Origin: an uncultured Chthonomonas sp.
GTDB lineage: Bacteria; Armatimonadota; Chthonomonadetes; Chthonomonadales; CAJBBX01
Length of the DNA: 64,000 nt
Reading direction: 5' to 3'
Assembly (NCBI GenBank): GCA_903951425.1
Contig: CAJBBX010000127.1
Span: 6,452 to 70,451, forward strand
The notes beneath the pieces were generated by a model. It made no database searches. It was not told the origin of the DNA and saw nothing but the letters and a program-made list of their open reading frames with translations. Positions 3,484-53,997 of this stretch are shown piece by piece. Each line of letters starts with the position of its first letter. Position 1 is the stretch's first letter. The translations under genes were made by a program, and so were the position numbers.

Positions 3484-5892
3484 ATGTCCGACCCCGCGTC
3501 GCCGACCCCGAAGCCCGCACGAAAACCTCGGGCGCGCCGTGCCTCCTCGACCCGCCTGAAGCGCGACGAGGCAGTCCTGCCCCTGGTGCCCATTCGCGAT
3601 CAGGTCTACTTCCCGCAGGGCGTCTTCTCCATCCTTGTCGGACGCGAGCGCTCCGTGCGAGCCGTCGAGGCGGCGATGGATGCGGACCGCCGACTTGTCC
3701 TGCTCGCTCAACGCGACCTCTCTGTCGAAGACCCGATGCCCGAAGACCTCTTCGCCATAGGCATCACCGCCTCCGTGATGCAGGTGCTTCGAGTTCCGGA
3801 CGGAACCCTGCGCGTTGTGCTGGAGGGCGTGGACCGCGTCAACGTCCTGAGCGTCGATGACGGGATCACTGATTACACGCTGGCCATCGTGACCCAGGCG
3901 TACGAGCCGCCAACCTCGGGAACCGAGACGGAAGCCTGTATGCGTCTCGTTAAGGCGCAGTTCGAGACGCTGGTGCACGCGAGCCACCAGATCGCGCCCG
4001 AGGCCCTGCTGGCGGTCATGAACAGCACCGTAGCCGGCGAAGTGGCTGATACCATCGTCCCCTACCTTCGGCACACCGACATCGCCGTGCGCCAGGAGCT
4101 TCTGGAGACGTTGAGCCCCGACGAGCGCTTGCAGAAGCTGGCGGCCGTGCTTGCCCGCGAGACCGAAGTCGCCGAGCTACAGCGCGTCATCCGTGAGCGG
4201 GTCGAGCAGACCATGGGCGACAACCAGCGCGAGGTGATCCTCCGCGAGCAGCTCCGCGCGATCACCTCGGAGCTGGGTGAGGTCGATGACCATGCCGCCG
4301 AGATGGCGGAGTACAGCGAGAAGATCGCCAACGCGGGGCTACAGGGCGTTGCGCTCGAACGAGCCGAGAAGGAGTTGCAGCGCCTCTCGCGGATGCCCGG
4401 CCCCGTGCCCGAAGCGGCGATCATCAGGAACTACCTCGACTGGCTGGTTGGCCTGCCCTGGACGACGCGGACCGAGGACCAGATCAACCTCGTCGAAGCC
4501 GAGGGCGTGCTGGACGAGGACCACTACGGCCTCTCGAAGCCCAAGGAGCGCATCGTCGAGTTCCTTGCCGTGCGCCGGCTTGCCGGAGACGCCATGCGCG
4601 GACCCATCCTGTGCTTCGTGGGTCCTCCCGGCGTGGGGAAGACCTCCATCGGCAAGTCCATCGCCCGTGCGCTCGGACGCAAGTTCGTGCGCATCTCGCT
4701 GGGCGGCGTGCGCGACGAGGCGGAGATCCGCGGGCATCGGCGGACCTACATCGGCGCCATGCCCGGACGGATCCTGCAGGGCATCAAGCAGGCAGGGACG
4801 CGCAACCCCGTGTTCATGCTGGATGAGATCGACAAGCTGGGCATGGACTTCCGCGGCGATCCCTCCTCGGCGCTGCTTGAGGCGCTGGATCCCGAGCAGA
4901 ACGGGGAGTTTAGCGACCATTACCTGGAGGTCCCCTTCAGCCTTCGCGACGTCATGTTCATCACCACCGCGAACTTGCTGGATCCCATCCCGGCGGCGCT
5001 GCGGGATCGAATGGAAGTGATCTCCTTCACCGGCTACACAGAGCAGGAGAAGCTGGCCATCGCCCGCGACTTCCTCGCCCCCAAGCAGCGCCGCGAGAAC
5101 GGCCTGAAGCCCACGAAGCCCGTCATCACCGACGATGCGCTGCTGCAGATCATCCGCGAGTACACCCGGGAGGCAGGCGTCCGCGGCCTCGAGCGCGAGA
5201 TCGGCTCCGTATGCCGCAAGGTGGCGCGCAAGGTCGCCGAAGGGAGCCGCGCACGCCTGCGCGTAGAGCCTGACGGTCTGTCGGCCATGCTGGGCAAGCC
5301 GAAGTTCCGGTACGGCGCCCTGGAGTCCGCGGATGAGGTCGGCGCGGCCACCGGCCTGGTCTGGACCGAGTTCGGCGGCGACACCATCACCATCGAAGTG
5401 ACCGTGCTGCCGGCCAAGGACGGCCGCCTGACGCTCACCGGCCAACTCGGCGACGTGATGCGTGAGTCAGCCCAGGCGGCGCTCACCTACGTCAGGTCAC
5501 GCTCGGCGGAACTGGCGCTCCCGGTAGACCTTGACCGCACCCGGGAGATTCACGTCCACGTGCCCGCCGGCGCCACGCCGAAGGACGGCCCGTCCGCCGG
5601 CGTGGCCATTGCCGTAGCCATCGCCAGTGCGCTGACGGGCAGGCCGCTACGGCGCGACATCGCCATGACCGGCGAGATCACCCTGCGCGGCAAGGTACTG
5701 CCCGTGGGCGGCATCAAGGAGAAGGTGCTGGGCGCCCACCGGGCCGGCATCAAGATCGTCGCGCTACCGCAGGAGAACCGGCGCGACCTCGACGACGTGC
5801 CCGCCGAGATCCGCGCCGAGATGAGCTTCGAGTTCGTGGAGGATGCGTGGCAGGCCATGTCACTCGTGCTCAGGCCTGCCGCGTCTCCCTAG
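3484..5892 (+). CDS. lon: Lon protease (LonA type), copy 1
   Basis: GGAGG lies 9 nt before the ATG. Lon N-domain, Walker [10 protein letters not shown] and S16 protease motif PKDGPSAG. It has a basic, Pro-rich 30-aa N-terminal tail. Confidence 0.95.
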
Positions 5893-20950: not shown

Positions 20951-22237
20951 CTACTGCAGAGGATGCGAGTGGGAACCCGCACCCCAGACGAACTGCAACG
21001 TCAGCTCCGTCAAGCCCCGACGTGCCGGTAGCAGCGCATCGGTAGTCCTGTCGCCGTGCGCGAGTTGCAGCCGCCAGAGCGAACTCTCCGTCATGCGGTT
21101 GGACCAGATGAGCGAGAGCAGGCGCTCGCCTCCCTCCAGGGGCCACGGAAGGCGGCTGTCGTCGTACCGCAGGCCGAACTCACGGTACTGGTCGGGCGCG
21201 TAGAGGGCCGAGACATAGGCGCCGGAGCGAGTATGCGGGAGGCGAGAGCCGGCGTCCTTGCGCGTATGCCACAGCGCTTCGCCCTGGAGTTGCCAACGGC
21301 CGAAGGCGCCGCGCATCTGCTTCAGGGTCACGTCGGCGCCGATGAGCCGCACCGAGTCGCCGCTGTCGGCCTTACCCGCCACCGCGCTCGAGCCGACCTC
21401 GAGTTCCGTGCTCGGGTTCAGCGCCTTGGAGAGCCAAAGCCGACCCATGGGAACCGTGCCGGTGGCTCCAAAGCCGAGCGGCAGCGTAGTACCGGTCACG
21501 TCGGGTCGACTGGCCTCGGCGTCCGATGCGCCAATCTGCACCGCGCCCACTTCCAGATTGGCGAAGAGGGACGGTACCGGCAGAAGCCAGTTCAGCGCCA
21601 CGCCGTTGCCGGCGAGGCCGTCGGGATCGGCCAGGTAGCGTAGCGCACCGGGCGTCTCGGCGTAGGGCGCCGCATGCGGGTGGATAGGGTTCAGCTTGCC
21701 GAACGGCAATCGGCGCTTGCCCAGCGTGCCGCCGAGCCCAGGCACTCCGAGCTTGGTGAACGTGACATAGCCCTCCTCCAGGCCCATGCCGAAGTCCCCC
21801 TCCTCGCCGGCGGCCAGCGTGGAGCGGAACAGCACGCCATCGGCCACGCGCTGCTGCAACGCGAGCTCAAGCTCCGAAATCCGGAACTGGTTCCGAGAGG
21901 GCTCGCCCTTGGCAGTGAGCATCCGGCCGAGGTTGTTGCCGAAGACGGCGATATCAGGCAACGCAGACGCCGAACCGGACTGAGCGGCCTTCCGCGCCGG
22001 CCCGGGCAAGACGACCGCCGGCACCGGCGGACCATCGGTTGTCTGGCCCGTGTCGGCGCCGGAACCGGCCTCGAGCTTGGCCAGGCGCTCCTGTAGTTCG
22101 CGGATCGTCTCGGCCTGCTTGGTCACGATGGCCTTGAGCTGATCCAGATCGGTAGAGCCGCTAGCCTGCGCCGCTACGGGATCGGCAGGCGCAGCAATGG
22201 CAAGGCACAGGGCGATGTACGCCCATATGGTTCGCAT
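20951..22237 (-). CDS. putative outer-membrane beta-barrel porin with N-terminal coiled coil
   Basis: Signal peptide, heptad segment DLDQLKAIVTKQAETIRELQERLAKLEAG, then alternating-hydrophobic strands. HPH and HSH motifs. It lies 12 nt upstream of the znuA-like gene. Confidence 0.6.
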   Translation of the reverse strand: MRTIWAYIALCLAIAAPADPVAAQASGSTDLDQLKAIVTKQAETIRELQERLAKLEAGSGADTGQTTDGPPVPAVVLPGPARKAAQSGSASALPDIAVFGNNLGRMLTAKGEPSRNQFRISELELALQQRVADGVLFRSTLAAGEEGDFGMGLEEGYVTFTKLGVPGLGGTLGKRRLPFGKLNPIHPHAAPYAETPGALRYLADPDGLAGNGVALNWLLPVPSLFANLEVGAVQIGASDAEASRPDVTGTTLPLGFGATGTVPMGRLWLSKALNPSTELEVGSSAVAGKADSGDSVRLIGADVTLKQMRGAFGRWQLQGEALWHTRKDAGSRLPHTRSGAYVSALYAPDQYREFGLRYDDSRLPWPLEGGERLLSLIWSNRMTESSLWRLQLAHGDRTTDALLPARRGLTELTLQFVWGAGSHSHPLQ

Positions 22238-22305
22238 CAGGACTTCCTCTCATCATGGGTAACCGCCGCACTGAGTTGCGCTGACGCGCAGCCATCGCGG
22301 CGAAA

Positions 22306-22647
22306 CTACACTATCGCGCAGTGAGAGGAGGTGACTGGAGGTGCACGCGAGCCGTGGAGGCCCAGGGGCGCTGACTGAGCGCAGACTGAGTACGAGGGGA
22401 CCTTGGCGACGCCCATCTCTGCGGCGGGCTGGAGCGGCCTTGACGGAACAGCGGCGGAAGTCCCGCCTACGGACGACCACGCGCAGACGACGCACGAATG
22501 GCCCGCCTGCCGTGAAAAGCTCCAGGAGGCATGATCGCAACCGTGTCGATGGACCAACGGGGCGCCGTACGCAAACCAGAGCCATGCCGCGAGAGCAAGG
22601 AGGGTCAAGGCACGCAGATGCCGATGTCTGGTGATCGCTAGGGTCAT
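22306..22647 (-). CDS. small membrane-anchored His/Cys-rich protein (DUF2946-like?)
   Basis: Within ORF 22306..22683, the ATG at 22647 gives MTLAITRHRHLRALTLLALAAWLWFAYGAPLVHRHGCDH...HSCVVCAW. One TM helix plus HxH/CxxC-type motifs. The overlapping frame 22253..22687 is Arg-rich junk. Confidence 0.5.
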   Translation of the reverse strand: MTLAITRHRHLRALTLLALAAWLWFAYGAPLVHRHGCDHASWSFSRQAGHSCVVCAWSSVGGTSAAVPSRPLQPAAEMGVAKVPSYSVCAQSAPLGLHGSRAPPVTSSHCAIV

Positions 22648-22740
22648 GGATGTTTCGTGCCGCAAGGGTGGGCATGTGCGCACCCATCAGGCTCAGTATA
22701 CGCCGCTGCGGCGCGATTGTCTCCGCGTAGCCTTGCAGCC

Positions 22741-22820: not shown

Positions 22821-24803
22821 GTGCTGTCTCTCTACGTCAGGCGCATCGCGTGGGCCTTCTTGGCCGTCGGCATCGCAGCATCGGCCTGGTTGGGCCTTCA
22901 GCGTCACCGCACCGAGGCGCGGAATCGGCGGGTGGAGATATGTATCGACCTGATCCAGGTCCGCACCCTTTCAGCCACGCAAGGCGTCTCGACCGCGGCG
23001 CTCCTCAGACGCTTTGAGGCCCGGGGCGTCTCCTCCGTGGGTGTCAGTGAGCTCACGGTGTCGGAGATGTGCCAGGCAGGGCTCGTTCGCCTTACGTCCA
23101 CCGGCGCCGCCTCCATGCTGCTCTGCTCGAGCCGCGAAGTGGCCGAGCAAGTGGCGTCCGCGCTGGAGGACCGCGGCCTGACCGACCTGGCCACCGAGGG
23201 CCCGATGCCTGACTGTCCGGTCGCTCTGGTTCGGTACGAACCAGTCGCTCCCGGCGACAGTGGCGAACCGGTCACCGTGGCAGCCTTCACGATCGACGCC
23301 GAAACACTGCTCAGCATGGGCGCCGGCCTATCACAGCAGGACTGCGCAGCGGTCCAGCGCGCCGGGCTACGCGTCGTGGCGCGCCTGGGGAGCTTCGCCG
23401 GAGCCGACCTCGCTTCTATGGCGGCCTCGCTCCGATCAGCCCGATCGTTGGGCGCCGACAGCGTCATCTTCACGGGCACCGAGGTGATGGGCTTCCGCAC
23501 AGGAGTGACGGACGCGGCCGAGGCGCTGAAGCGGAGCGGGCTGACCTGGGGCCAGGTTGAATTCGGTAAGCAGAAGGGTGACGAGCGGCTGGCCGAGTTG
23601 ATGGACGGCCGGTTCGTCCGCGTCCACAGCATTGCCGAAGCCGAGCTTGCGCAAATCGCGCCGTCAGAGGCTGTCGAGCGCTTCGTGCGCGCCGCACGCG
23701 AACGCAACATCCGGCTCTGCTACGTGCGCCTCCCCTTCCTCACCGGCCCGGACCCCATCGGCGAGAACCTCGCCATGGTCGGCGGTATCAGCGGCGGCCT
23801 GCGCAAGCGTGGTGAGATGGCAACCGGTCCGGCGAGGCTTTTGGGCAAGCCGGCAGCCCCGGCAGCCATACGCGCACTGGCCGGCCTGGGCGCGGGCGCA
23901 GCCGTCGTCCTGGTTACGCTTGCCCTGCTTGGTGAGGCGAGCCTTCCGGTCGTCGTCGGCTTGGTCCTGGTGGCGATGGCCATTGCCGCAGGCGGCGTGG
24001 CGGGCCACATGGGCGCCAAGGCGGCGGCCCTGATCGCGGCCATCGCCTGTCCCACCCTTGCCGGACTGAGGCTGCTGCCGGGATGCAGCGCCGCTACCGA
24101 AACCAAGACCTCGCCCCCCATCACCGCGGGCCTGAAGGGCCTGCTGGGCGGCACGGCACTGTCGGCGGCGGGCGGGCTCCTCGTGGTGGGCCTGCTATGC
24201 GATCGCGACTTCATGCTCCATACGGAGCAGTTTGCCGGCATCAAGCTGGCCCACGCACTCCCCGTGCTGCTCGTGGCCCTTGCCGCTATGACCGGCCTTC
24301 CCGGGCCCGGCGAGAGCCTGCGCGCCGCCTTCCCGGCGATGAGGGGGCGTGTATCCGACTTCCTATCCAGTCCGCTCCGCGTGGGCATGGTCGGCGGCGC
24401 CCTGGTCGCGCTGATCGCGCTGGCGTTCGCCGTGGCGCGGACCGGCAACGAGCCCGGCGTCGGCGTCTCAGGCCTGGAGCTGCGGTTCCGGTCGATCCTC
24501 GACGCGTTCTTGGTTGTGCGCCCGCGGACGAAGGAGTTCCTGATCGGCCACCCGTTGGTGTTCCTTGGAGTGGCGCTGGCGGCTGCGGGCCGCCGCACCT
24601 GGGCTCCGGCGCTGACCATCGTGGGAATGCTGGGCCTGGTCTCGATCACCAACACGTTCTGCCATATCCACACGCCGGTCCACCTGTCGGTGGCCCGCGT
24701 GGCGATCGGGCTTGTGCTGGGCGGCGCCATCGGCTGCATCGTGTGGGCGTTCCTCTCACGCCGTGTGACCGCCGGCCCGGCAGGCAGCGCCCCGACCGCA
24801 TGA
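22821..24803 (+). CDS. large polytopic membrane protein (DUF5693-like)
   Basis: GTG start behind GGAGGG. One N-terminal TM helix, a ~300-aa soluble domain, then ~8-9 TM helices. My recollection is that csaB-adjacent genes of this shape are annotated DUF5693. Not verified. Confidence 0.7.
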   Translation: MLSLYVRRIAWAFLAVGIAASAWLGLQRHRTEARNRRVEICIDLIQVRTLSATQGVSTAALLRRFEARGVSSVGVSELTVSEMCQAGLVRLTSTGAASMLLCSSREVAEQVASALEDRGLTDLATEGPMPDCPVALVRYEPVAPGDSGEPVTVAAFTIDAETLLSMGAGLSQQDCAAVQRAGLRVVARLGSFAGADLASMAASLRSARSLGADSVIFTGTEVMGFRTGVTDAAEALKRSGLTWGQVEFGKQKGDERLAELMDGRFVRVHSIAEAELAQIAPSEAVERFVRAARERNIRLCYVRLPFLTGPDPIGENLAMVGGISGGLRKRGEMATGPARLLGKPAAPAAIRALAGLGAGAAVVLVTLALLGEASLPVVVGLVLVAMAIAAGGVAGHMGAKAAALIAAIACPTLAGLRLLPGCSAATETKTSPPITAGLKGLLGGTALSAAGGLLVVGLLCDRDFMLHTEQFAGIKLAHALPVLLVALAAMTGLPGPGESLRAAFPAMRGRVSDFLSSPLRVGMVGGALVALIALAFAVARTGNEPGVGVSGLELRFRSILDAFLVVRPRTKEFLIGHPLVFLGVALAAAGRRTWAPALTIVGMLGLVSITNTFCHIHTPVHLSVARVAIGLVLGGAIGCIVWAFLSRRVTAGPAGSAPTA

Positions 24804-25855
24804 GCCTCCGCGGGTTGCTCTGCGGCTACTACGGATGCGGCAACCTGGGCGACGAGGCCGTCCTGGGCGGGATCGTCAACTCGTGGGCGCAGCAGTTCGG
24901 CGACTCGAACGGGCTCGTCGCCCTCTCGGGTGCGCCGGCGTCCACGGAAACATCACATGGCATCCGCGCCGTACCAAGGATGGACGTTCGAGCGGTGCGG
25001 GCGGCCATAGCTGAGACGGATGTGGCGGTCTCCGGTGGCGGCAGCCTATTCCAGGACGCCACAAGCGTCCGGTCGCTGCTCTACTACGCTGGCTACCTCT
25101 GGTTGGCCCGGCGGATGGGCAGGCCGGCAGTGATCTACGCGCAGGGCGTGGGGCCGCTGCGTCGGCCGTTGTCGCGCACAATCACCGCGGCCGCGTTTCG
25201 AACCGCGGCGCTGGTGACGGTTCGCGACGTTGAGTCGGCGGAACTGGTGCGACGGATCGGCGGCGCGGCGGCGCGCCTGGAGGTGACCGCCGACCCGGCC
25301 TTCGCCCTGCCGGAGCGCCCGCAGACGGAACCCAGCGGCGGACTGGCCGTCCTGGCGTTGCGGACGTGGGGTTCGGTTCGGACACCGGCGGACGCGGCCG
25401 AGTCGGTGCGGGCGGTGCGGGCCGAGGGTCTGCACCGCGTGGCGTTGCTGGCCATGCATGCCGGCGAGGATGAAACACTGGCTCGCGAGGCTGCGGCTCT
25501 GGCCGGTGATGGGTGCTTCGTAGCCCAAGTGCCCGACGTCGGCTCGGCGCTCGGCCTGGTGCGTTGCGCCGATCTCGTGGTGGCCATGCGCCTCCACGCA
25601 CTGGTGTTCGCGGTGATGTCGGCTACCCCGGTGGTAGCCCTTTCGTACGACCCAAAGGTGAAGTCCTTCATGAGTTCGGCGAGGCTCTCGGCCTACTGCA
25701 CTGAGGAGTTCGACAGCGCTCGCGTGCAGGCCCTCTGCAAGTCGGCGCTGGTAGCCGCGCCGGAGATCCGAAGGCTGCAGATCGCCCGTAGCGTCGAACT
25801 TCGGCGTGACGCTCTGCGGACGGCGGCCCTGGTGGCCGAGGTCGTCGCTCGATGA
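24800..25855 (+). CDS. csaB: polysaccharide pyruvyl transferase CsaB
   Basis: ORF 24083..25855 carries a spurious 5' extension. The true ATG at 24800 overlaps the upstream stop (ATGA). MSLRGLLCGYYGCGNLGDEAVLGGIV is the CsaB N-terminus. Confidence 0.85.
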   Translation: MSLRGLLCGYYGCGNLGDEAVLGGIVNSWAQQFGDSNGLVALSGAPASTETSHGIRAVPRMDVRAVRAAIAETDVAVSGGGSLFQDATSVRSLLYYAGYLWLARRMGRPAVIYAQGVGPLRRPLSRTITAAAFRTAALVTVRDVESAELVRRIGGAAARLEVTADPAFALPERPQTEPSGGLAVLALRTWGSVRTPADAAESVRAVRAEGLHRVALLAMHAGEDETLAREAAALAGDGCFVAQVPDVGSALGLVRCADLVVAMRLHALVFAVMSATPVVALSYDPKVKSFMSSARLSAYCTEEFDSARVQALCKSALVAAPEIRRLQIARSVELRRDALRTAALVAEVVAR

Positions 25856-28818
25856 ACGGCCGACCCCTCCGCGCTCTGATGCTAACTCTCCTCGTAGCGG
25901 CCGCCGTCCAAGTACCGGGTCAGGAAGCCACCGTGAAGGCGGAGAGCGCATGGGATATCATGCGGCGCATCCGCACGCTGACGCCGGCCGAGATCAAGCA
26001 GCAGCGGGCCGAGCAGGCCAAGGCAGGCGCCAAGAAGCCAACAAAGCCAAAGCGCGGCAAGACCCCGTTCGAGGCAGATAAGCCCAAGAAGGCCGACCGC
26101 CTGCTGGGCGCCCTCCGAAGCCAGTTGCAGAAGATCGGCGAGCAGACCAAGTCCGAAGTGCGCCTACAAGGCTCGCACAACCTCGGCTTCCACATGGAGC
26201 AGGTCAACGGTAGCCGCGACGCCTACGATAGCTCCCAGTACCTCGGCCGGCGCGCCTTGGGCGGCGGCTACACGAGCACAGACCTCGCAGTACGCGGTAA
26301 GCTTTTCGGCGTCCTAAACTTCGAGACGCACTACAGCGACTACATGTACGGCAGTCCGTACGACAACCGCCTCTCGCTCGATTACGTCACCCGCGACTAC
26401 AAGGTGAACGCGGGCGACATCCAGGCGGGCCTGACCGGCAACTCGCTGATCGGCTTCTCCAAATCGCTGAAGGGCATCCAGGTCACGGCCAACCTTGCAC
26501 GCAACGTGCGTCTCACGTCGCTGGTGAGCAAGTCCAAGGCACAGACCCGCACGGTAACCCTGAACGGCGCCAACCGGTCCGGTCCCTACTACGTCTTTGC
26601 CGGCCAGATCGTGGACGGAAGCGAGCGGATACGCGTCAACAACCGCGAACTGGTTAAGGGTACGGATTACACGCTGGATCCCTACACCGGCGAGCTCAAC
26701 TTTCTGAACGGGCTGATCGTGCACGAACTCGATACGATCGCGGTCACGTTCGAGGTCTACAACTACGGCCAGAGCGGCGGCGCCATCATGGGTTGGCGTG
26801 CGGACTACGGCGGCGCGACAGGGCCCAAGGTCGGTTTCAGTATGCTGTCGCAGGTGTCGGGCTCGAACAAGGGCGTCATCAGCCGGACGGAGCAGTTCTA
26901 CGGCTACAACAGCGCAGCCACTCCCTACACGCTGGAACTGCCCGTCGACGTGACACTGGTTTACGATGCCGCGGGCAAGCTGACAGGATGCACCCCCAAG
27001 TACCCGATGACCGTCACCGTGGGCACGCTTCCGCAGGTCTACGGCACGGACTTCGTCGTTGATCCCCTGCTGCCCAACCGCGTCTACTTCCAGTTGCCTA
27101 TTCCCAGCACGCAGATTATCCGGATCACCTATACGCCGGTCACCTCCACCGAGACGCAGGGCGATCGGCAGGTCATGGGCTTCGACGCACAGATGGCCAT
27201 GGGCAAGTCGGGCACCATCACGGCGGAGATGGCCTCCAGCAAGCTCTCCCTCTCGTCCGGCCCGTCCAGCGGAACCGCGGTACAGATCCGCGGCGAGAAC
27301 CGCCTCGCCGGTGAGAAGCTGCGGCTCAACTGGGTCTACAAGAACATCTCGCCCGCCTTCACGGCAGTGGAGAGCCCGGGGTTCAACCGCAACGAGCGCG
27401 GCATCCAGACCGATATCGCCTACACGCCGTCCAAGCGCGTGAGTATCACGGCGAACTACCAGCGGTCGCGCAGGCCGCAGTACTCGTACTCCACGTCGAG
27501 TACGGGCGGCCTGGCCGCCTCCACCGGGATGGATGACTACAACCAGAACGGCATCACAGGCAAGTGGGAGCTCGGAAAGGGAAGCCTCAGCGTCAGCCAC
27601 AACTCGATGAACACCACCTACAGTGGCGGAACAGGCAGCAGCGTCATGCAATCGGACACTTTGGCCTACACGACCAATACCGGGCCATGGGGAGTTGACC
27701 TGTCGCTAGGCCGCAATGTCAACCGCTCTTCCGGCTCCTACTCGTCCAGCGTGGGCGCCACGGCCACGAGCTACAACACTGACGCGTTGACCTCTCGCCT
27801 GGGCGTGCGATGGAAGCCCGGCGAGCGCTACTCGGTCGATGCACAGATATCCGACAGCATCATGAAGAGCGGCACCGGCGGCAGCAACAACGCGCTGGAC
27901 CTGCAACTCACCGGGCGTATTGTCCCGATGAAGGCCCTGCAGCTGACGCTGAACCTCCAGAAGCAGGACAGCGGCGGCTACTCGATCTTCAACAGCACGA
28001 CGGGATCAGCGACCAGCGCCCCCGGCCTGACGGGCCAGTTGCAGTCCTACTACACCGGCGGCACCTATGGCGGAGGCGGCTTCAACACCGGGCTCGGCGG
28101 ATCTGGCAACTACAGCGGCGGCTTCAACTCGGGGTACTACGGCATGGGCAGCGGCTCCTTCGGCGGCAACTCCCGAATGATGGGTCTGACGGTGAGCTAC
28201 CAGCCCGCGGGCGCCCTGTCGCTGGAGGCCCAGATACGCACCAGCGCCAGCGCCGGCGACTACATGTACAACAGCAAGCGCAACGACCTTTCTATGAGCG
28301 CCACGTACAACGCCGGCGAGCGGCTCTCGCTCAGCAGCGGCCTGATGCTGCAGAAGGTCACCTACCTGGGAACCGAGGGCGGCAGCAACAACATGGGCGT
28401 CTTCATGAATGCCCGCGGCAAGCCATGGGGCAAGCTGATCACCGATCTGAGCCTCTCGATCCAGAACACCACCAGCACGGCCACCACGGACGCGACGGGG
28501 ACCGGAGGCTACACCGGCGGCTACGGGACCTACTTCGGCTCCGGCGGCACCAACCTGGCCTCCGTGCGGACCCGACTGGAGTACCCGGTCTGGCACGCCA
28601 CCAACGTCTTCGCCGAATACGAGCACTCCAACAGCACCGGCTACCTGGCTGCGCTCGCCCGCCGCTTCAATATGGGACTGGTGTTCGACATGGGCCGCCA
28701 GCTCCGGCTCCAGGTGGGCATGAGGCACCAGCAATCGATCAGCCACGACACATCCACCAGCGGGAACTACAGCTACTCCGTCAGTTCCTTTGACGCTGAC
28801 CTCGGCCTTAACTTCTAG
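25852..28818 (+). CDS. 988-aa secreted beta-barrel outer-membrane protein, unknown family
   Basis: ATGA overlap with csaB. Signal peptide, Lys-rich helical segment, long amphipathic-strand region with Gly/Tyr/Ser/Asn loops, and C-terminus ...DADLGLNF (terminal Phe as in OMPs). Confidence 0.65.
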   Translation: MNGRPLRALMLTLLVAAAVQVPGQEATVKAESAWDIMRRIRTLTPAEIKQQRAEQAKAGAKKPTKPKRGKTPFEADKPKKADRLLGALRSQLQKIGEQTKSEVRLQGSHNLGFHMEQVNGSRDAYDSSQYLGRRALGGGYTSTDLAVRGKLFGVLNFETHYSDYMYGSPYDNRLSLDYVTRDYKVNAGDIQAGLTGNSLIGFSKSLKGIQVTANLARNVRLTSLVSKSKAQTRTVTLNGANRSGPYYVFAGQIVDGSERIRVNNRELVKGTDYTLDPYTGELNFLNGLIVHELDTIAVTFEVYNYGQSGGAIMGWRADYGGATGPKVGFSMLSQVSGSNKGVISRTEQFYGYNSAATPYTLELPVDVTLVYDAAGKLTGCTPKYPMTVTVGTLPQVYGTDFVVDPLLPNRVYFQLPIPSTQIIRITYTPVTSTETQGDRQVMGFDAQMAMGKSGTITAEMASSKLSLSSGPSSGTAVQIRGENRLAGEKLRLNWVYKNISPAFTAVESPGFNRNERGIQTDIAYTPSKRVSITANYQRSRRPQYSYSTSSTGGLAASTGMDDYNQNGITGKWELGKGSLSVSHNSMNTTYSGGTGSSVMQSDTLAYTTNTGPWGVDLSLGRNVNRSSGSYSSSVGATATSYNTDALTSRLGVRWKPGERYSVDAQISDSIMKSGTGGSNNALDLQLTGRIVPMKALQLTLNLQKQDSGGYSIFNSTTGSATSAPGLTGQLQSYYTGGTYGGGGFNTGLGGSGNYSGGFNSGYYGMGSGSFGGNSRMMGLTVSYQPAGALSLEAQIRTSASAGDYMYNSKRNDLSMSATYNAGERLSLSSGLMLQKVTYLGTEGGSNNMGVFMNARGKPWGKLITDLSLSIQNTTSTATTDATGTGGYTGGYGTYFGSGGTNLASVRTRLEYPVWHATNVFAEYEHSNSTGYLAALARRFNMGLVFDMGRQLRLQVGMRHQQSISHDTSTSGNYSYSVSSFDADLGLNF

Positions 28819-29618
28819 CCCACCGGCCAGATCGCGGGACGCCGTATGCTGACGAGGGTGCGCCACGTCTCATCTCCCACCTGCGAGATCGCCACACCCA
28901 ACCTGCCCGACGAGTGGATGTAGCGCCCGCCCCCCATGGCGATCGCCACGTGCGTGATGGACCTGCCGGGCGCCGGCTGCGCGGGTCCAAAGAAGAGCAG
29001 GTCGCCGGCCATGGGCCAATCGAGGGGCCGGTCGAGCAGGAGCGGAGACGCGGCCTGCAGGTCGGCATCGCGTGGCAGCAATGCGCCGCAGAGGCCGAAC
29101 ACAAGCTGGACGAAGCCTGAGCAATCCAAGCCGAACGCGCTGGACCCGCCCCAAAGGTACGGGATCCCCAAGAACCCCCGAGCCACAGCGAGGACTGCCG
29201 ACGGCGTTGGCACTGCATCAGAGATCACCTGCAGTCCGGATGCGGCCAGCCGCGCTGTGGAGCCGTCAGCCAAGCGCGTAGTATCACCATCCTCCACCAG
29301 GCTCCCTGCCGAGAGCAGATAGGGCGCGGCGGCAGTTCGCCCTGACGCGCTCATCACGCGTAGCAGGGGCTTCCGAACCACCCTCACGCGCTCCGGCGCC
29401 GGATACACTTCTTCAGGGCCGAGCGGGCGCAGAGCAGCGCCATGCACCCATCCCTCGTACTGGTCGGCCGTGCGGACGCGGAGGTAGGTGTCCCGGGCCC
29501 CCAGCACCCGCACGGTATGTCCATGCAGCGCCTGGCTCACCCGTTCCGATCGGTCTGACGGTTCCGCGCGCATGGAGAGCACGTTGCTCGTCACGACCGC
29601 CCGTCTTCCGATGTCCAT
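28815..29618 (-). CDS. C40 (NlpC/P60) peptidoglycan endopeptidase with SH3b-like N-domain
   Basis: ORF 28815..30113. The true ATG at 29618 follows GGAGGAGGAG. Catalytic Cys context GLDCSGFV, His in ITHVAI. The N-terminal LSMRAEPS...VRV is SH3b-like. Confidence 0.88.
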   Translation of the reverse strand: MDIGRRAVVTSNVLSMRAEPSDRSERVSQALHGHTVRVLGARDTYLRVRTADQYEGWVHGAALRPLGPEEVYPAPERVRVVRKPLLRVMSASGRTAAAPYLLSAGSLVEDGDTTRLADGSTARLAASGLQVISDAVPTPSAVLAVARGFLGIPYLWGGSSAFGLDCSGFVQLVFGLCGALLPRDADLQAASPLLLDRPLDWPMAGDLLFFGPAQPAPGRSITHVAIAMGGGRYIHSSGRLGVAISQVGDETWRTLVSIRRPAIWPVG

Positions 29619-29712
29619 GGTTCGCTCCTCCTCCCGACTGCGGCCCGACGCATTGGCCGAAGGTAGAATAGTGCATTCCCGATCGCCGCCACACACCAAT
29701 GGGGGTTCGCAC

Positions 29713-32196
29713 GTGTTCGTCGCTCGATATACCCGCAGAACCAGGTTGCCCGTCGCCGCCGCGGCCGTTCTGGTCGGCCTGGCCACCATAGCGTCCCTCG
29801 GCGGCTGCCGGCGAAGCAACGCGCCCGAGCCGGTCAACCTCGTGGTTTGGGGCCTGCAGTACGGCGCCGAGAGCAAGGGGCTCGAGGCCCGCGTTAAGGG
29901 GTTTGAGACCCGCAACCCGGGAATCAAGGTCACGGTCCTCTCCATGGGCGCCGGCCAGATGAACCCGCAGAAGCTGATGACAGCCATCGTTGGCCGCGTT
30001 CCGCCTGACGTGATCCACCAGGATCGGTTCACCATCGGCGATTGGGCCTCGCGGGATACGTTCGGCAGCTTGGATGACCTGATAGCCCGCGACCAGAACC
30101 AGCCTGACGGCATTCGCGAGTCAGACTACTACCACGCCTGTTGGGCTGAGGCAGTCTACAAGGGCAGAATCTACGCCGTCCCATCCGGCACCGACGACCG
30201 CGCGCTCTACTACAACCGCTCCCTGCTGCGCGACGCCGGACTGGACCCCGACAAACCGCCGAGAACCTGGTCGGAGTTGAGGGACTTCGCCAAGAAGCTG
30301 ACCAAAGAGGCGCCGGGCGGCTCCTTCGACCGGATCGGCTTCATCCCGAACTACGGCAACTCGTTCCTCTACCTCTACAGCTGGCAGAACGGCGGCGAAT
30401 TCATGGGCCCCGACGGGCGCAAGTGCACCATGAACAACCCCGAGAGCGTGGCCTCGCTGGACTACATGGTGAGCGTCTACGATGCCCTCGGCGGCGTGAC
30501 GCGGATCGACTCCTATGCCTCCGGCTTCCAGGCGCAGGAGCTTGACCCGTTCCTCACCGGCAAGGTCGCCATGAAGGTGGACGGCAACTGGGTGCTGGAG
30601 AGCATCGGCCGCTATCGCCCGGATCTGGACTTCGCCGTGGCTCCGGCGCCGGTGCCCGACGACCGGCTGGCGCAGACCGAAGGCGGCAAGCCCGGCCGTT
30701 TCGCGGGGCAGGACCCGTTCCTTACCTGGTCCGGCGGCTTCAGCTACGCCATCCCCCGCGGCGCCGCGCACCGCGAAGAGGCCTGGCGGTTCATCAAGTG
30801 GATGTGCAGCCCCGAGGCCGCGCTCATTGATTCCGCGGCCCAGAAGCAGTACTGCCTGTCGAAGTCACGCCCGTACATCCCCACCATCTCCGCCAACAAG
30901 CGAGTGAACGAGGCGGTGATGGCGGCCTTCGCGCCGACTTCGGAGCGGTACCGCAAGCCGCTGAAGCTCTTCATGGATATGATGCCCTACGCCAAGTTCC
31001 GTCCCGTGACGTTCGTCGGGCAGCGGCTCTGGGATGAACATGTCCGCGCCTTCGACCAAGCCACACACCACAAAGAGACCAAGCTGACGGCGCAGGCCGC
31101 CATGGACGAGGCGACCCGGGTCGTGCAGTCCGAGTTGGACCGCGCCCACAGCCGCGACCGGTTCCCACTCCTCGGCTCCACAGCGCCCATTGTGGTGGGA
31201 TCGCTGATCGTGCTGGCGCTACTGGCCGCGGTGTTTGTCGGCGTTCGCCAGGTCAGCGGCATGGGCAGGGTGGTCCGCTCGGAGGCGTGGGCGGGCTACC
31301 TCTTCGCCGCTCCGTGGATCCTGGGGTTCCTTGCGCTGACGGCCGGCCCCATCGTCGCGTCGATGTTCCTCAGCTTCTGCGACTACGACGTGCTCCACGC
31401 GCCGCGCTACGTGGGCTTTCAGAACTACATCGACCTCTTCACCACCGACAGCTACTACCTGAAGACATCTCTCTACAACGTGGGCTACCTGGCCCTCATC
31501 GGCATTCCGCTGGGCATGGCCACAGGGCTGGCCATCGCCATGCTGCTTAACTCCAAAGTGGGCGGCATGAGCATCTACCGAACTTGCTTCTACCTGCCCT
31601 CCATCGTGCCTGTGGTGGCCAGCGCAGTGCTCTGGGCGTGGGTGCTGAACGGCGACCCGAACCGAGGTCTGCTGAACGCTGCGTGGAAGGCGACCCTGAC
31701 CCCGTGGTTCGGATGGACGCCGCCCGGCTGGTTCGGCGCCGCCGAGTGGGCCAAGCCCGGGCTCATCGTGCAGGGCCTCTGGGGAGCCGGCGGAGGCATG
31801 ATCCTCTGGCTTGCCGGGCTGCAGGGCATCCCGCAGCACCTGTACGAGGCGGCCGACCTGGACGGCGCGGGCCCGCTGGTGAAGTTCCGCCACGTCACGC
31901 TACCCATGCTCTCGCCCTACGTCTTCTTCAACCTCATCATGGGGACCATCGGCGCCCTGCAGGAGTTCGACCGAGTCTACGTCCTCAGCGGGCAAGGCGC
32001 GGGCGGAAGTTCCGTGGGCCCCGTCGACAGCCTGCTGGTGCCGGTGATGTACCTCTTCAACAACGCGTTCAAGTACTTCAAGATGGGGTATGCATCCGCC
32101 CTGGCGTGGGTGCTGTTCACCATCATTCTGGCCCTGACTCTGGTGCAGCTCAAGTCCGCGCCGCGGTGGGTCCACTATGAGGCGGAGAAGAAATGA
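29713..32196 (+). CDS. fused sugar-ABC lipoprotein solute-binding protein + MalF/UgpA-like permease
   Basis: A single uninterrupted frame. It has a lipobox LGGC and a family-1 SBP body. A linker TM helix (APIVVGSLIVLALLAAVFVGV) follows. It ends in a 6-TM permease with the EAA-loop region. The start is uncertain: GTG at 29713 or GTG at 29671. Confidence 0.8.
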   Translation: MFVARYTRRTRLPVAAAAVLVGLATIASLGGCRRSNAPEPVNLVVWGLQYGAESKGLEARVKGFETRNPGIKVTVLSMGAGQMNPQKLMTAIVGRVPPDVIHQDRFTIGDWASRDTFGSLDDLIARDQNQPDGIRESDYYHACWAEAVYKGRIYAVPSGTDDRALYYNRSLLRDAGLDPDKPPRTWSELRDFAKKLTKEAPGGSFDRIGFIPNYGNSFLYLYSWQNGGEFMGPDGRKCTMNNPESVASLDYMVSVYDALGGVTRIDSYASGFQAQELDPFLTGKVAMKVDGNWVLESIGRYRPDLDFAVAPAPVPDDRLAQTEGGKPGRFAGQDPFLTWSGGFSYAIPRGAAHREEAWRFIKWMCSPEAALIDSAAQKQYCLSKSRPYIPTISANKRVNEAVMAAFAPTSERYRKPLKLFMDMMPYAKFRPVTFVGQRLWDEHVRAFDQATHHKETKLTAQAAMDEATRVVQSELDRAHSRDRFPLLGSTAPIVVGSLIVLALLAAVFVGVRQVSGMGRVVRSEAWAGYLFAAPWILGFLALTAGPIVASMFLSFCDYDVLHAPRYVGFQNYIDLFTTDSYYLKTSLYNVGYLALIGIPLGMATGLAIAMLLNSKVGGMSIYRTCFYLPSIVPVVASAVLWAWVLNGDPNRGLLNAAWKATLTPWFGWTPPGWFGAAEWAKPGLIVQGLWGAGGGMILWLAGLQGIPQHLYEAADLDGAGPLVKFRHVTLPMLSPYVFFNLIMGTIGALQEFDRVYVLSGQGAGGSSVGPVDSLLVPVMYLFNNAFKYFKMGYASALAWVLFTIILALTLVQLKSAPRWVHYEAEKK

Positions 32197-35388: not shown

Positions 35389-37863
35389 CTACGGATTGGG
35401 TCCGATCCGGAATGCCCGTGTCTCCCCCGCCTTGAGCTTCACTGTGAACTTGGTAGCCTTCCCTACCATGCTTGTCCGCACGACCTCACGCGAGACAAGG
35501 TCGTGCGCCGCAAGCGCCGTGACCTTGCCTGCGCCGAGGCCGTCGCGCTCAAAGCGAATGGCGCCGCCCACCTCGGCGTCAGATATGTTGGTGACCGTGA
35601 GGCAGTCGGCGCCGTACCGCTCGAGCCAGACTGCAGGCGGCGTGGCGGTTGCCCCCGTGATGGGACGCCATCCCGCTGCGGAGAGCTTCTTGATGGCAGG
35701 CATGTAGCGGACGAATAGGTCGCGGTCGCGGTTGTGCCACTGCGGCTGGGTCCAGTAGTTTCGCGACGATGCGTCCACGCTGAACATGCTGGGGAACACG
35801 GCATAGAACATGCAGCGTTGGATGTACCGCTCCACTTCGGTGCGGCCGAACTTCTCGAAGTCCGTGTTCTGGAGCAGCAGGTACGGCTTCGTACCGCTGA
35901 GTACACGACGCAGGCTGAAGACATCGTGCGTGTCGGGCCGCCACTCGCCGCCGGGCAGCCAGTTGGTCTCGGTGCCCATGACATCAAGCCACGGCGAGAA
36001 GCAGTGGATGCGCCAAGGAGTGGCATTGGCCATTAGAAGCTTGCCCATGGACCGAAGTCGGCCGCTGAGCCAACGCGTCATCTCGGCCACGTTGAACCAG
36101 GTGGGCGCCACCGGTTCCAGGCTGTCCGACGCGAAGGTCGGAGGAGACGCAAGCGCGGCGAGCCCACGATCCGAGTAGTCCAGCACGTCAGCCCAGCCCT
36201 CGAGCGAATCGAGGTACTCGCCATCCAACGAACCGGAAGCGTAGATCGGCCGAAGGACGTCATCGCCGAATGCCATCTGCGCGCGGCTGAGCTCGCCGGC
36301 CGGGGCCTTGAGTGCCGGGTTGGGGTTCAGAGCCCAGACGCCGCCGTTGGTCCATGGCGCGTCAATGAAGTCAACGTGCGGCCGTCCGTCGGCATCAAGA
36401 CAGCCGCTGTTGAGGGTCGCCTGGGCCATAAGGCGTTGTTCGCCCGTGGCCTCGCGCGCCTGGCGCCGGACCTCGGCGTGACCGGCATCGAGCGTGCGCG
36501 GCATGGTCTTGGGCATGGCCATCCAGTAGGTCATCGGCTCGGTGTAGCGGAAGCTGAGGACGCCGAGCTTGTCGTCAGTCTCCAGGCTATCGTCGCCCTC
36601 GTGGTAGGCGAAGCCGAAGTCGGCGCCCCGCTCCACGTTGGCAGGCGGCACGAAGGGGATCCAGAGGCCCTCGGCCTTGGCGCGGCGCTCAAGGGCTGCT
36701 GGATCGTGCCTGGCGTACTCCGCCACGACGGAGCGGAAGCCCCACCGGCCGTCGGCGTCGAACGCGAGGGCCGTGACAGATGCAGTGGCGCGCCCTTCCT
36801 TGTCCAGGCTGCGAACGGCGCGACGGCTCAGGGCCACATCGAACGACGCGTAGAGCAGCCGTGAAGCCCCGTTGAAGCCGAAACGGACCACGCGCGGCCC
36901 CAGCGACGCCGGCACACCGAGTGCTGCTATCCGCTTGCCGCACCGCACGGCGCCGAACGGATAGATCGACATCTGCCCTGCCGCACCCAGATTGGTGCGC
37001 GTCACGTTGCATGCGTCGCTGTTAGGACCAACGGGGCGGCTCACCCGAAGATCGTTGAGCCAGATGCAGGGCCCACCCTCCACGCGCCTGACGTAGGTGA
37101 GCGTCAGGGCACGGTCGCGGCCCGTGGTGTCGACCACGCGAAGACTCCGGGCAGCACCCAAGCGGGGCTTCACCGAAACGCCGACAAACCGCACACCCAG
37201 CGTAGCCTCCGTCGCCCGGTTAGCCGGAAGCAGCTTGCCTCCCGCCGCAACGTCGCGCACGAACCAACCCGATGCGGCGCCAACACGAAGATCCGGTGGC
37301 GCCAGCGGCTGCGAGTCGAAGAAGTCCGCGCGATCGGGGGTCTTGAAGGTGAATGCGTCGAACCACGCCGTGCCCGTATGGTTTCGGAACAGGGCATGGA
37401 TGTGAACCTGCGCAATGGGCTTGGCAGGGATCACCGTGACCTGCCGCTGTTGCCAGTCGTGGGAGCCGACCGCAAGCGGGGCGGTCTGGCCCCAGAGCGG
37501 AGTACCGTCCGTGTAGGTGATATCGATATAGATCGCGTAATCGTTATCGGCATGGCCGGATACGTTTTCGCAGCGGCTCCAGCCGGTGACCACCACGGGC
37601 CGCGGCGCGCGCTGGTTCAGTTCCGCCGTGAAGGTGGCTCCGTGCGCTTCGCTAGGCCGGGGGGCCACGCATCGGATGGAGGCGGCGCCCTCCTTGGGCT
37701 GGTCCCGATCCATCTCATATCCCGCTCCGAACGGCGCCCAGCCGACACACCGGGGGCCGTCGTGCTGCTCGAAGCCCAGGACGGCCGGCGTCGGCGCAGT
37801 CTGCGCGAACGACCGCCCGCCAAGAGAGATGGCCAGCATCGCGAGACCCAGGACGCGAAGCAT
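35389..37863 (-). CDS. 824-aa secreted protein with N-terminal CBM4/9-like domain, function unknown
   Basis: ORF 35389..37923. The ATG at 37863 shares its A with the pyrE TGA. Signal peptide MLRVLGLAMLAISLGGRSFAQ. The N-domain ends ...HTGTAWFDAFTF. The remainder is an uncharacterised, glycoside-hydrolase-sized body. Confidence 0.6.
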   Translation of the reverse strand: MLRVLGLAMLAISLGGRSFAQTAPTPAVLGFEQHDGPRCVGWAPFGAGYEMDRDQPKEGAASIRCVAPRPSEAHGATFTAELNQRAPRPVVVTGWSRCENVSGHADNDYAIYIDITYTDGTPLWGQTAPLAVGSHDWQQRQVTVIPAKPIAQVHIHALFRNHTGTAWFDAFTFKTPDRADFFDSQPLAPPDLRVGAASGWFVRDVAAGGKLLPANRATEATLGVRFVGVSVKPRLGAARSLRVVDTTGRDRALTLTYVRRVEGGPCIWLNDLRVSRPVGPNSDACNVTRTNLGAAGQMSIYPFGAVRCGKRIAALGVPASLGPRVVRFGFNGASRLLYASFDVALSRRAVRSLDKEGRATASVTALAFDADGRWGFRSVVAEYARHDPAALERRAKAEGLWIPFVPPANVERGADFGFAYHEGDDSLETDDKLGVLSFRYTEPMTYWMAMPKTMPRTLDAGHAEVRRQAREATGEQRLMAQATLNSGCLDADGRPHVDFIDAPWTNGGVWALNPNPALKAPAGELSRAQMAFGDDVLRPIYASGSLDGEYLDSLEGWADVLDYSDRGLAALASPPTFASDSLEPVAPTWFNVAEMTRWLSGRLRSMGKLLMANATPWRIHCFSPWLDVMGTETNWLPGGEWRPDTHDVFSLRRVLSGTKPYLLLQNTDFEKFGRTEVERYIQRCMFYAVFPSMFSVDASSRNYWTQPQWHNRDRDLFVRYMPAIKKLSAAGWRPITGATATPPAVWLERYGADCLTVTNISDAEVGGAIRFERDGLGAGKVTALAAHDLVSREVVRTSMVGKATKFTVKLKAGETRAFRIGPNP

Positions 37864-38447
37864 CAGGACGCGCTCGCCAGATGCCTGGTGCCGGGAGCGG
37901 TGATTGGCGATCCCGCCGCGCACTGCGGGCAGGCGCTGGGGTCGAAGGCAGCCACCTTGACGCAGAGCGCCGACCGCGTGGGCGCACCGAACGTGAGCTC
38001 ACCGCCCGTGCGATCGGCAAGGACACCGACACCGGCGAGCACAGCTCCATGACGCTGCAGGACGCCCAGACACTCGCGAATCGAGCCGCCGGTGGTCAGG
38101 ATGTCATCCACTACGAGCACCCGCGCACCGGGCGCGAGAACCTGACCGCGCCGAAGCCGCCGTTCGTCGCCCTCGCGCTCGGCGTAACGAGCCTCCACGC
38201 CCAGGTGAAGCGCCACGGCATAGGCGAGGATGATGCCCGCGGTCGTGGGCCCGAGCACCACGTCGACGCGATCATCCGCGAAGCCGGCTGCCAGGTCGGC
38301 GGCCAGCAGGTCCAGCGTACGCGGGTCCTCGAACAGGCGGAACTTCTCCACATACTGGTCGCTGTGCAAGCCGCTGGATAGCTTGAAGTGCCCCGTCAGC
38401 AGGGCGCCTGCGCGGGCGAATAGGGCCAGGGCCTCTTGGTTGTCCAT
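37863..38447 (-). CDS. pyrE: orotate phosphoribosyltransferase
   Basis: ORF 37863..38600. The true ATG at 38447 follows GAGGAG. GHFKLSSGLHSDQY, PRPP loop VLVVDDILTTGGS and C-terminal CPQC. Confidence 0.85.
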   Translation of the reverse strand: MDNQEALALFARAGALLTGHFKLSSGLHSDQYVEKFRLFEDPRTLDLLAADLAAGFADDRVDVVLGPTTAGIILAYAVALHLGVEARYAEREGDERRLRRGQVLAPGARVLVVDDILTTGGSIRECLGVLQRHGAVLAGVGVLADRTGGELTFGAPTRSALCVKVAAFDPSACPQCAAGSPITAPGTRHLASAS

Positions 38448-53901: not shown

Positions 53902-53997
53902 TAGCCCATGAGGGGCTCCGCGAGGCCCGTGGATTCGTCCCTCTTGCTATACAAGGAACACCACGGCCACTCCGTTGTGACCGCGAAGGGACGCCCC

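Follow-up and report, generated by a model that had tools for sequence, protein, structure and literature searches.

A three-gene unit on a 64-kb stretch of DNA from an uncultured Chthonomonas sp. of the Armatimonadota (GC 66%; referred to as the window) encodes a DUF5693 membrane protein, a CsaB-type polysaccharide pyruvyl transferase and a predicted giant outer-membrane β-barrel without a Pfam family. The reading that we favor, with a probability of about 0.4, is that the unit is an envelope operon that joins a module for pyruvylating wall glycan to a giant, capped translocon of the outer membrane, rather than to a tether that reads the charge of the wall polymer, as proposed in a preliminary description of the same DNA. 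The window is ~94% identical at the protein level to an uncultured Chthonomonas metagenome-assembled genome (MAG). The unit is made up as follows:

22821..24803, plus strand: DUF5693 gene, GTG start, 660 aa
24800..24803, plus strand: ATGA start/stop overlap of the DUF5693 and CsaB genes; the junction reads gcATGAgc
24800..25855, plus strand: CsaB-type polysaccharide pyruvyl transferase gene, 351 aa, with TIGR03609 and PF04230 matches
25852..25855, plus strand: ATGA start/stop overlap of the CsaB and barrel genes; the junction reads cgATGAac
25852..28818, plus strand: barrel gene, 988 aa, with an AlphaFold2 (AF2) barrel model and no Pfam family

In the favored scheme, CsaB, a cytoplasmic enzyme dependent on phosphoenolpyruvate (PEP), would decorate a lipid-linked wall glycan with an anionic pyruvate ketal, and the pyruvylated glycan would serve as the ligand of S-layer homology (SLH)/OmpM-type proteins encoded elsewhere in these genomes. 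DUF5693 would be the membrane partner of CsaB and would handle the glycan at the inner membrane. The barrel would act as a gated, capped outer-membrane translocon or channel for a macromolecule, with an SprA-like build and co-expressed with the wall-glycan module; its candidate cargoes are surface proteins and the pyruvylated product itself, as glycan or glycolipid. What the analysis shows is the gene structure, the family assignments, the class of fold, the conserved neighborhood and the lack of conservation of the cationic segment; the topology, the cap and the roles given to the barrel and DUF5693 are inferred.

At both junctions of the trio the start codon overlaps the preceding stop codon by 4 nt, as confirmed by direct reading of the sequence, which suggests that translation of the three genes is coupled. 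Tight coupling is not universal, because the gap between the CsaB and barrel genes varies among relatives from an overlap up to ~430 nt. The overlaps on which the preliminary description based its claim of co-translation stand. Its family calls for the first two genes hold as well. The first protein matches Pfam DUF5693 (PF18949) over the full length of the profile (positions 1-604 of 609; E=3e-134, 449 bits against a gathering score of 29) and is identical (100%) over 660 aa to P0075. The second scores 265.2 bits against the NCBIfam equivalog for CsaB, TIGR03609, where the cut-off is 213.1, and contains a PS_pyruv_trans domain (PF04230; E=1e-31, 111 bits against 25.3). Its start at 24800 is backed by the hidden Markov model alignment, in which residue 6 falls on model position 3, while the frame is open from 24083. 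Given its family membership, the window CsaB would be expected to carry out PEP-dependent pyruvylation of a wall polymer containing N-acetylmannosamine.

Conservation of the trio in relatives was followed from both ends. Loci seeded with the barrel were taken from contigs encoding homologues and from a scan of genome contigs, 22 being informative; loci seeded with DUF5693 came from an 80-locus metagenome sample and were counted where there was room downstream. DUF5693, CsaB and barrel genes occur on the same strand and in the same order in 17 of the 22 informative loci across the Armatimonadota. The arrangement persists where barrel identity has fallen to 25-33% (L005, L026, L027 and L112), and it is found in Armatimonadota other than Chthonomonadales, at L030, where the third protein is matched by hhalign at E=1e-121, and in MAG C4335, in which locus tags 08935 (DUF5693, P0174) and 08945 (barrel, P0334) flank one gene. 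On a neighbor-joining tree of the barrels, the trio state appears in every major clade. In the metagenome loci, CsaB follows DUF5693 in 61/63 cases, and the barrel follows the DUF5693-CsaB pair in 15/42. On this gene-order evidence, DUF5693 and CsaB form the invariant core pair; the barrel often joins them, is an ancient member and has been kept by vertical descent. The adjacency of the three genes that the preliminary description noted is thus maintained in relatives.

The barrel protein could not be placed in a known family. No Pfam family was matched at E<=0.1, and a search of Pfam and NCBIfam for a known domain at E<=1 gave only a chance-level match to DUF7840 (0.93) and a local match to SprA; SLH (PF00395) was absent at that threshold, as had been judged by eye, and neither library assigned the protein to LptD, BamA or another unrelated family. 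The 74 homologues collected by a word-indexed search are all hypothetical proteins, none with a Pfam domain. In an exhaustive profile search, 1733 cluster representatives scored at E<=1e-3, of which 234 stayed within E<=1e-30. Homologues with a taxon name belong to Armatimonadota/Chthonomonadales, and sampled clusters include Fimbriimonadales; the two off-taxon names among the 74, P0043 ('Verrucomicrobia') and P0072 ('Kamptonema'), probably reflect mislabeled bins or cultures. Neither the searchable literature nor the family libraries contain a description of the barrel family or of a DUF5693-CsaB-barrel unit.

An AF2 model built from 56 sequences (mean predicted local distance difference test score (pLDDT) 74, predicted template modeling score (pTM) 0.59) shows residues 102-988 as one huge antiparallel sheet or barrel, preceded by low-confidence helix and coil in residues 1-100. 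In the DSSP string, 7 strands lie before residue 239 and 25 after residue 437, and a confident hairpin at 311-335 possibly adds two, so that the barrel is predicted to have about 32-34 strands. The turns on one face of the barrel are all of 2-6 residues, and the long connections (18, 10, 7, 199, 16, 12, 66, 21 and 10 residues) are all on the other. The pattern is that expected of a standard outer-membrane protein (OMP), with periplasmic turns, extracellular loops and both termini in the periplasm. Because the putative periplasmic face consists of 2-6-residue turns, the barrel would show almost nothing to the periplasm beyond its N-terminal extension. The protein begins with a signal-like hydrophobic stretch and ends in an aromatic residue, F988, that is invariant in the 56 sequences. 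The generic features of an outer-membrane β-barrel (signal peptide, strands, one-sided short turns and C-terminal aromatic) are thus present, the localization being a prediction, and the earlier description of a very large signal-peptide barrel with an OMP-type C-terminus is borne out. The features of the barrel protein discussed below are:

25930..26151, plus strand: predicted periplasmic N-terminal extension (aa 27-100), with the W34 motif, a Lys-rich stretch and a pre-barrel helix
26566..27162, plus strand: conserved ~200-aa insert (aa 239-437) on the long-loop side, where the invariant columns cluster
26596..26853, plus strand: SprA-like segment (aa 249-334), TIGR04189 E=9e-9
27970..28167, plus strand: Gly/Ser/Tyr/Asn-rich loop of 66 residues (aa 707-772), pLDDT<50
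28786..28815, plus strand: C-terminal β-signal-like strand ...DADLGLNF, the last strand of the model

Conservation in the family is concentrated on the long-loop side. Few stretches of the family are as well conserved as the insert, and the conserved motifs on that side include YGNPxDNR, GNSL, GGxNxGLGGxGNYSGG and the longer GPYYVxAGQIVDGS...DYTLDPYTGELNF. Since conservation on the extracellular side is the reverse of what is found in porins, a folded cap or plug is suggested, and the insert is likely to be that element in the model. The motif GGxNxGLGGxGNYSGG is the core of the loop at aa 707-772, where, in spite of the low pLDDT, all 18 members compared share G742, G743, G749, G752 and N753-G757; the loop might serve as a plug or constriction or bind a ligand.

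[quoted passage not shown] The SprA model TIGR04189 aligns its positions 600-686 with residues 249-334 of the window barrel at 33 bits, against a 200-bit cut-off, and is matched by 13/18 members of the barrel family, the best at E=2.3e-11. In the opposite direction, a sub-profile of the insert searched against PDB sequences gave a single significant match, to residues 697-780 of Flavobacterium johnsoniae SprA (6h3i_A; E=1.3e-3). No known protein other than SprA/Sov could be related to the barrel by sequence, and the match is found in both directions. The full-family barrel profile against PDB sequences returned only an irrelevant IFT20 chain (E=0.018), and a single insert sequence searched against the same set gave no match. 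The alignment of ~85 residues runs from the small β insert into the two strands that follow. The barrel is not a member of the SprA family, given 33 as opposed to 200 bits and 988 as opposed to ~2400 aa; the likeness may rather reflect a shared module, possibly of distant common ancestry.

SprA has been described as a 36-strand barrel that is capped on the outside and opens laterally (PMC10994853). The window barrel resembles SprA/Sov (PDB 6H3I) in being a predicted giant outer-membrane barrel whose extracellular end would be closed by inserts between strands, and in some divergent loci a neighbor of the barrel gene carries a FlgD_ig/T9SS C-terminal domain (CTD)-like C-terminal domain. The two differ in size and host, as SprA has ~2300-2400 aa and is found in Bacteroidota, while the barrel has 988 aa and is found in Armatimonadota (Terrabacteria), and only the barrel is linked to CsaB and DUF5693. 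No other T9SS gene (PorV, GldKLMN, CTD cargo) was seen in the window, CTD-like neighbors being confined to the divergent loci.

Comparison of the model with the PDB by Foldseek gave more than 250 barrel matches at E<=1e-3. The matches are to giant barrels only, all with a TM-score of at most 0.31 by query length: MtrB (E=1e-11), Deinococcus SlpA (2e-11 to 5e-10), SprA (6.5e-9) and LptD (~1e-8), with further matches to ushers and TonB-dependent transporters. To our knowledge, all characterized barrels of at least 24 strands handle macromolecules or act as tethers. LptD and MtrB (a 26-strand sheath) are large barrels with a plug or filling and a macromolecule to handle, as is proposed for the window barrel (Foldseek E=1e-11 to 1e-8), and genes for the Lpt bridge lie near the cassette in several lineages. 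In contrast to them, the barrel has more strands, a TM-score of at most 0.26 and no LptD_N jellyroll or LptD/MtrB signature. No Pfam or NCBIfam match to the LptD_N jellyroll or the LptD C-terminal barrel family was found in the barrel, and the TM-score with LptD is at most 0.20; BamA/Omp85 (POTRA, 16-strand Bac_surface_Ag) gave no match either, the model having about twice the strands.

The OmpM/SlpA group (Deinococcus SlpA 8AE1/8AGD, Thermus SlpA and Veillonella OmpM) shares with the window protein a barrel in a Terrabacterial diderm and a genetic tie to CsaB, the enzyme whose product serves the group as anchor. One of the best Foldseek hits is the 30-strand Deinococcus SlpA, but its TM-score is only 0.30. 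Unlike this group, the barrel lacks SLH and a coiled-coil stalk, the model showing only short, low-confidence helices (33-42, 45-57 and 80-99) where a stalk of the OmpM/SlpA type was sought; some members lack any periplasmic extension, and this order has separate genes for canonical SLH/OmpM-like proteins.

The N-terminal extension is where the tether proposal can be judged. The preliminary description held that a helical polycationic segment behind the signal peptide forms a non-SLH module that reads the anionic polymer. The Lys-rich stretch K49-L85 (nt 25996-26106) is present and the net charge over residues 23-100 is +11, so the segment is indeed polycationic, but it is only partly helical: the model has a helix at 45-57, pLDDT<50 for 59-79 and a helix at 80-99, and most of the region is low-confidence coil. 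The net charge ahead of the barrel is +11 in the window protein and +10 in a 94% identical relative, but 54 other homologues have values between -2 and +11, mostly 0 to +8, and linkers of ~40 to 200 residues that are mostly rich in Pro, Ala and Gln. Only the window protein and relatives 90-94% identical to it carry the polycationic segment, and a conserved cationic module was rejected on the charge statistics over the homologues.

A different element of the extension is conserved within the Chthonomonadales-type subfamily. Directly after the signal peptide stands the motif (E/D)(T/S)LWDxL, with W34 in >90% of sequences; the window copy is SAWDIM (aa 32-37, nt 25945-25962). The motif is repeated 2-4 times in some proteins (P0033, P0035 and P0040) and a Pro-rich linker of variable length connects it to the barrel, a short amphipathic helix (aa 80-99) lying just before strand 1. 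From its sequence it looks like a docking peptide. TLWDxL is found in 72/198 full-length family members and is missing from the other 126/198, and in many members of ~850 aa the signal peptide is followed by a ~15-residue helix and then directly by the barrel. Because such extension-less barrels keep the trio (P0072 at L005, in the order Rhomboid-DUF5693-CsaB-barrel, and those of L112 and L113), the linkage to CsaB is independent of any N-terminal module.

That the barrel binds the pyruvylated wall polymer through a periplasmic N-terminal module of its own, cationic in the window or made of TLWDxL and linker elsewhere, is therefore improbable. The +11 Lys-rich, disordered and periplasm-facing extension of the window protein would suit such a role, but that charge is shared only with close relatives; the Trp motif on its 40-200-aa Pro-rich linker, sometimes repeated, resembles a tethering or docking peptide, but it is acidic and hydrophobic rather than cationic, and most members do without it while L005, L112 and L113 retain the trio. 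Operon linkage to CsaB throughout the phylum and the weak fold resemblance to the Deinococcus tether/porin SlpA are consistent with a tether, whereas the minimal periplasmic face and the concentration of conserved residues on the opposite, long-loop side argue against it. No SLH, OmpA_C, LysM or other wall-binding domain was detected in the 74 homologues or in 8 members with a long N-terminus, where the sole Pfam match was a sub-threshold one to DUF5777 in one member. A tether role would be at best a lineage-specific addition through the N-terminal extension, and the module claimed in the preliminary description is not upheld.

The likely readers of the CsaB product lie elsewhere in these genomes. 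OmpM homologues occur in Armatimonadetes (Witwinowski et al., 10.1101/2021.05.31.446380), and OmpM-like SLH proteins are listed for Chthonomonas sp. UBA2354 and UBA2785 and for Fimbriimonas (10.1101/2021.05.31.446380, Supplementary Data Sheet 1A). For C. calidirosea T49 the same sheet gives two SLH proteins and CsaB but no OmpM call, the last a point on the side of the tether (10.1101/2021.05.31.446380, Supplementary Data Sheet 1A). Because SLH/OmpM-like proteins exist in Chthonomonadales genomes, a non-SLH reader is not needed to explain CsaB. CsaB adjoins Omp-alpha/Omp-beta in Bipolaricaulota (Witwinowski et al., 10.1101/2021.05.31.446380), which provides a precedent for CsaB beside outer-membrane proteins and, as these are tether genes, would also suit a tether. 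No SLH was found near the cassette, either in the window or in 111 loci, by a regular expression and an SLH consensus, a weak check.

The csaA-csaB loci of Bacillus and Paenibacillus offer a parallel for the core pair, in that a CsaB equivalog stands beside a polytopic membrane protein whose presumed substrate is the same glycan. The partner there is presumably a Wzx-like flippase, whereas here it is DUF5693, and an outer-membrane barrel is present only in the Armatimonadota unit.

The architecture of DUF5693 is predicted with confidence and is apparently new. Its AF2 model (49 sequences; pLDDT 90, pTM 0.89) consists of a transmembrane (TM) helix at aa 2-34, a TIM-barrel-like α/β domain at aa 37-331 and a ~10-TM bundle at aa 348-649. 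No match in the PDB was found by Foldseek at E<1e-3; the best hits, at E~0.01, are weak and fall on TIM barrels of the PEP/pyruvate type (pyruvate kinase, KPHMT, DmpG and PseI), which is intriguing beside a PEP-using CsaB but is not evidence. When the Lys and Arg residues of the loops are counted over the family, the positive-inside rule favors an N-in, C-in protein with a periplasmic TIM-like domain, a topology that remains ambiguous. Under it the invariant loops GNEPG...RxR, HP and NTFCHIHTP would face the periplasm, and invariant Arg, His and Glu residues where membrane and periplasm meet would be in keeping with a polymerase, ligase, transferase or similar enzyme whose substrate is an undecaprenyl-pyrophosphate-linked glycan. 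The earlier suggestion of a membrane-embedded component for polymer assembly or export is plausible. A homology search with the divergent DUF5693 protein P0170 returned 14 proteins and gave no lead on the range of the family beyond the Armatimonadota, and a search of the accessible literature found nothing on DUF5693 or PF18949.

The genes that accompany the cassette in other lineages suggest a setting in envelope and outer-membrane biogenesis. Where the barrel is absent, the next gene often encodes a lipoprotein of ~500 aa with two CarboxypepD_reg domains (L044, L047-L049, L052, L053 and L058), and homologous lipoproteins (E=1e-22 to 1e-45) follow the barrel in L109, L112 and L113; these proteins have ~430-540 aa, the lipobox LQGCGG and Fn3-like repeats. 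The third position elsewhere may also be taken by a TPR or sulfatase gene. Genes with LptD_N/OstA_2/LptC domains lie one or two genes further on at L053:10088-10975 (1e-14), L058:11263-12105 (9e-12) and L037:13725-14561 (3e-8). L114 has, at L114:9523-11202, an LptC match (5e-7) and an LptD_N/OstA_2 protein (8e-11), L112 has a weak match, and in L031 the Lpt-domain genes are ~7 kb upstream. TamB is encoded near the cassette at L054:13963-18528. No gene for such a lipoprotein, for an Lpt component, for TamB or for a CTD-tailed protein is present in the window.

The Lpt genes raise the alternative that the barrel is an LptD analogue without the jellyroll, possibly working with the OstA-like proteins and the CarboxypepD_reg lipoprotein, while CsaB and DUF5693 would modify or ligate an exported, maybe O-antigen-like, glycan. 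We consider this quite improbable, even with LptC and LptD_N/OstA_2 genes within a few genes of the cassette in the loci named above, the homologous lipoprotein after CsaB or the barrel in ~10 loci and LptD chains among the Foldseek hits. The barrel matches neither LptD family in Pfam, the window itself is free of Lpt genes, the window CsaB passes an equivalog model of the S-layer/secondary cell-wall polymer type, and the adjacency may simply mark an outer-membrane biogenesis cluster, TamB being nearby in L054. Armatimonadetes carry core lipopolysaccharide (LPS) genes, and no clear LptD/E homologues were found in diderm Firmicutes (Antunes et al. 2016, PMC5007114), but Lpt components are widely conserved in diderm Terrabacteria according to a review (PMC11784454). 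Pyruvylated O-antigens are known (PMC10629545) and would fit an exported glycan of this kind.

Three divergent loci encode a secreted protein of 1000-1277 aa after the barrel (L104:16413-19814, L109:12573-16403 and L114:4465-7455), in each case ending in a FlgD_ig/T9SS-CTD-like β-sandwich (FlgD_ig in L114, 28 bits against a gathering score of 27). Together with the local SprA similarity, these tails hint at a translocon-cargo pair in the divergent clades. At L031:12968-16513, CsaB is followed by a 1182-aa surface protein of the CarboxypepD_reg/CTD-like kind; it was considered as a barrel homologue and rejected, with an hhalign probability of 0.1%. A more far-reaching version of the favored reading, which we regard as unlikely, would make the barrel the outer-membrane end of an unrecognized envelope-spanning pathway, a miniature SprA-like translocon outside Bacteroidota. 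It would either export surface proteins with FlgD_ig/CTD tails that are retained on the CsaB-pyruvylated glycan, echoing the retention of T9SS cargo on anionic LPS, or deliver the pyruvylated glycan or glycolipid in the manner of LptD, with DUF5693 as the inner-membrane glycan-handling enzyme.

Several points weigh against a translocon operon. The translocon role draws on analogy with barrels of at least 24 strands and on the ~85-residue SprA match of 33 bits, and DSSP order and loop-length parity are the only source for the number of strands, the presence of a cap and the face on which the insert lies. The clade of the window has no cargo-like or Lpt gene adjacent to the trio. The N-terminal extension of the Chthonomonadales type, with its Trp motif, could still mediate a periplasmic contact. 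Coupling is not obligatory, as the barrel is missing downstream in 27/42 metagenome loci with DUF5693 and CsaB and stands alone in L003, L004, L022 and L023, all of one subclade; and gene order kept inside a single phylum may in part stem from common inheritance of a cluster of outer-membrane genes and not from direct cooperation.

The last two points would also be expected if the barrel were a large general porin, uptake channel or structural OMP that shares only a promoter and ancestral synteny with its neighbors, in the manner of the clustered envelope genes of diderm Firmicutes. Such an absence of direct coupling is somewhat unlikely. Unrelated genes (lipoprotein, TPR and sulfatase) fill the third position elsewhere, housekeeping genes flank the trio in the window, and OmpM itself doubles as a nutrient channel (PMC10628300). 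But gene order and strand are kept from 94% down to ~25% identity in all major clades, with reading frames that often overlap or abut, and a barrel of the predicted 32-34 strands, with its highly conserved putative cap insert, would be far larger than any known general porin. The extracellular loops of porins, moreover, are normally their least conserved part, whereas those of the barrel are its most conserved.

Little is known about the way in which diderm Terrabacteria assemble, anchor and cross their outer membrane. In the accepted picture, SLH-porins (OmpM) bind a CsaB-pyruvylated wall polymer, and the partners of CsaB in diderms are largely unidentified; DUF5693, as a near-obligate partner, becomes a prime candidate for the missing step in wall-glycan assembly. 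The kinds of component, a CsaB pyruvylation module and a giant OMP, are already known. The locus defines a large, unannotated Armatimonadota family of putatively capped barrels of 32-34 predicted strands, with a possible trace of SprA ancestry and a genetic tie to the CsaB module. If the barrel is a translocon, SprA-like machinery would extend beyond Bacteroidota, or Terrabacteria would have an alternative exit for glycan at the outer membrane; if it is merely a co-located OMP, a major family of envelope proteins would still gain a useful annotation.

Downstream of the trio and convergent with it, a gene for an NlpC/P60 peptidoglycan hydrolase with SH3 domains occupies 28815..30113 on the minus strand (NLPC_P60 E=1e-18, SH3_16 and SH3_3), its stop region overlapping the barrel stop by 4 nt. 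A convergent NlpC/P60 gene has the same position in L001, L006, L007, L010 and L011 and is upstream in L008. It is regarded as a neighbor of the unit. On the other strand, a 902-aa open reading frame (ORF) at 29488-32196 (plus) joins SBP_bac_1 and BPD_transp_1, and its 5' part overlaps the NlpC/P60 ORF; its true start is probably later, or else it is a fusion or a frame artefact.

Upstream, the divergent flank consists of two unannotated minus-strand ORFs (22253-22687 and 20951-22237), followed by znuABC, pth and gidB. In four distant lineages a rhomboid protease gene occurs just upstream of DUF5693, at L001:4080-4820, L005:4412-5098, L030:6467-7168 and L112:3313-4005, directly so in three lineages and with one gene between in L030; the window has the divergent ORFs at that place. 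Scans of the window for promoters and terminators were uninformative at its GC content. Elsewhere in the window are ABC transporters, ftsY, tRNA synthetases and two lon genes, which encode full-length Lon protease paralogues at 3484-5892 (plus) and 50879-53314 (minus). Large ORFs without a significant Pfam family lie at 35389-37923 (minus, 844 aa), 53908-57438 (plus, 1176 aa) and 50732-52618 (plus, 628 aa), of which the last may be a shadow ORF of the opposite-strand Lon gene. The protein encoded at 48526-50661 has four Big_3_5 repeats, and it and the large ORFs without a family may be further envelope or surface proteins.

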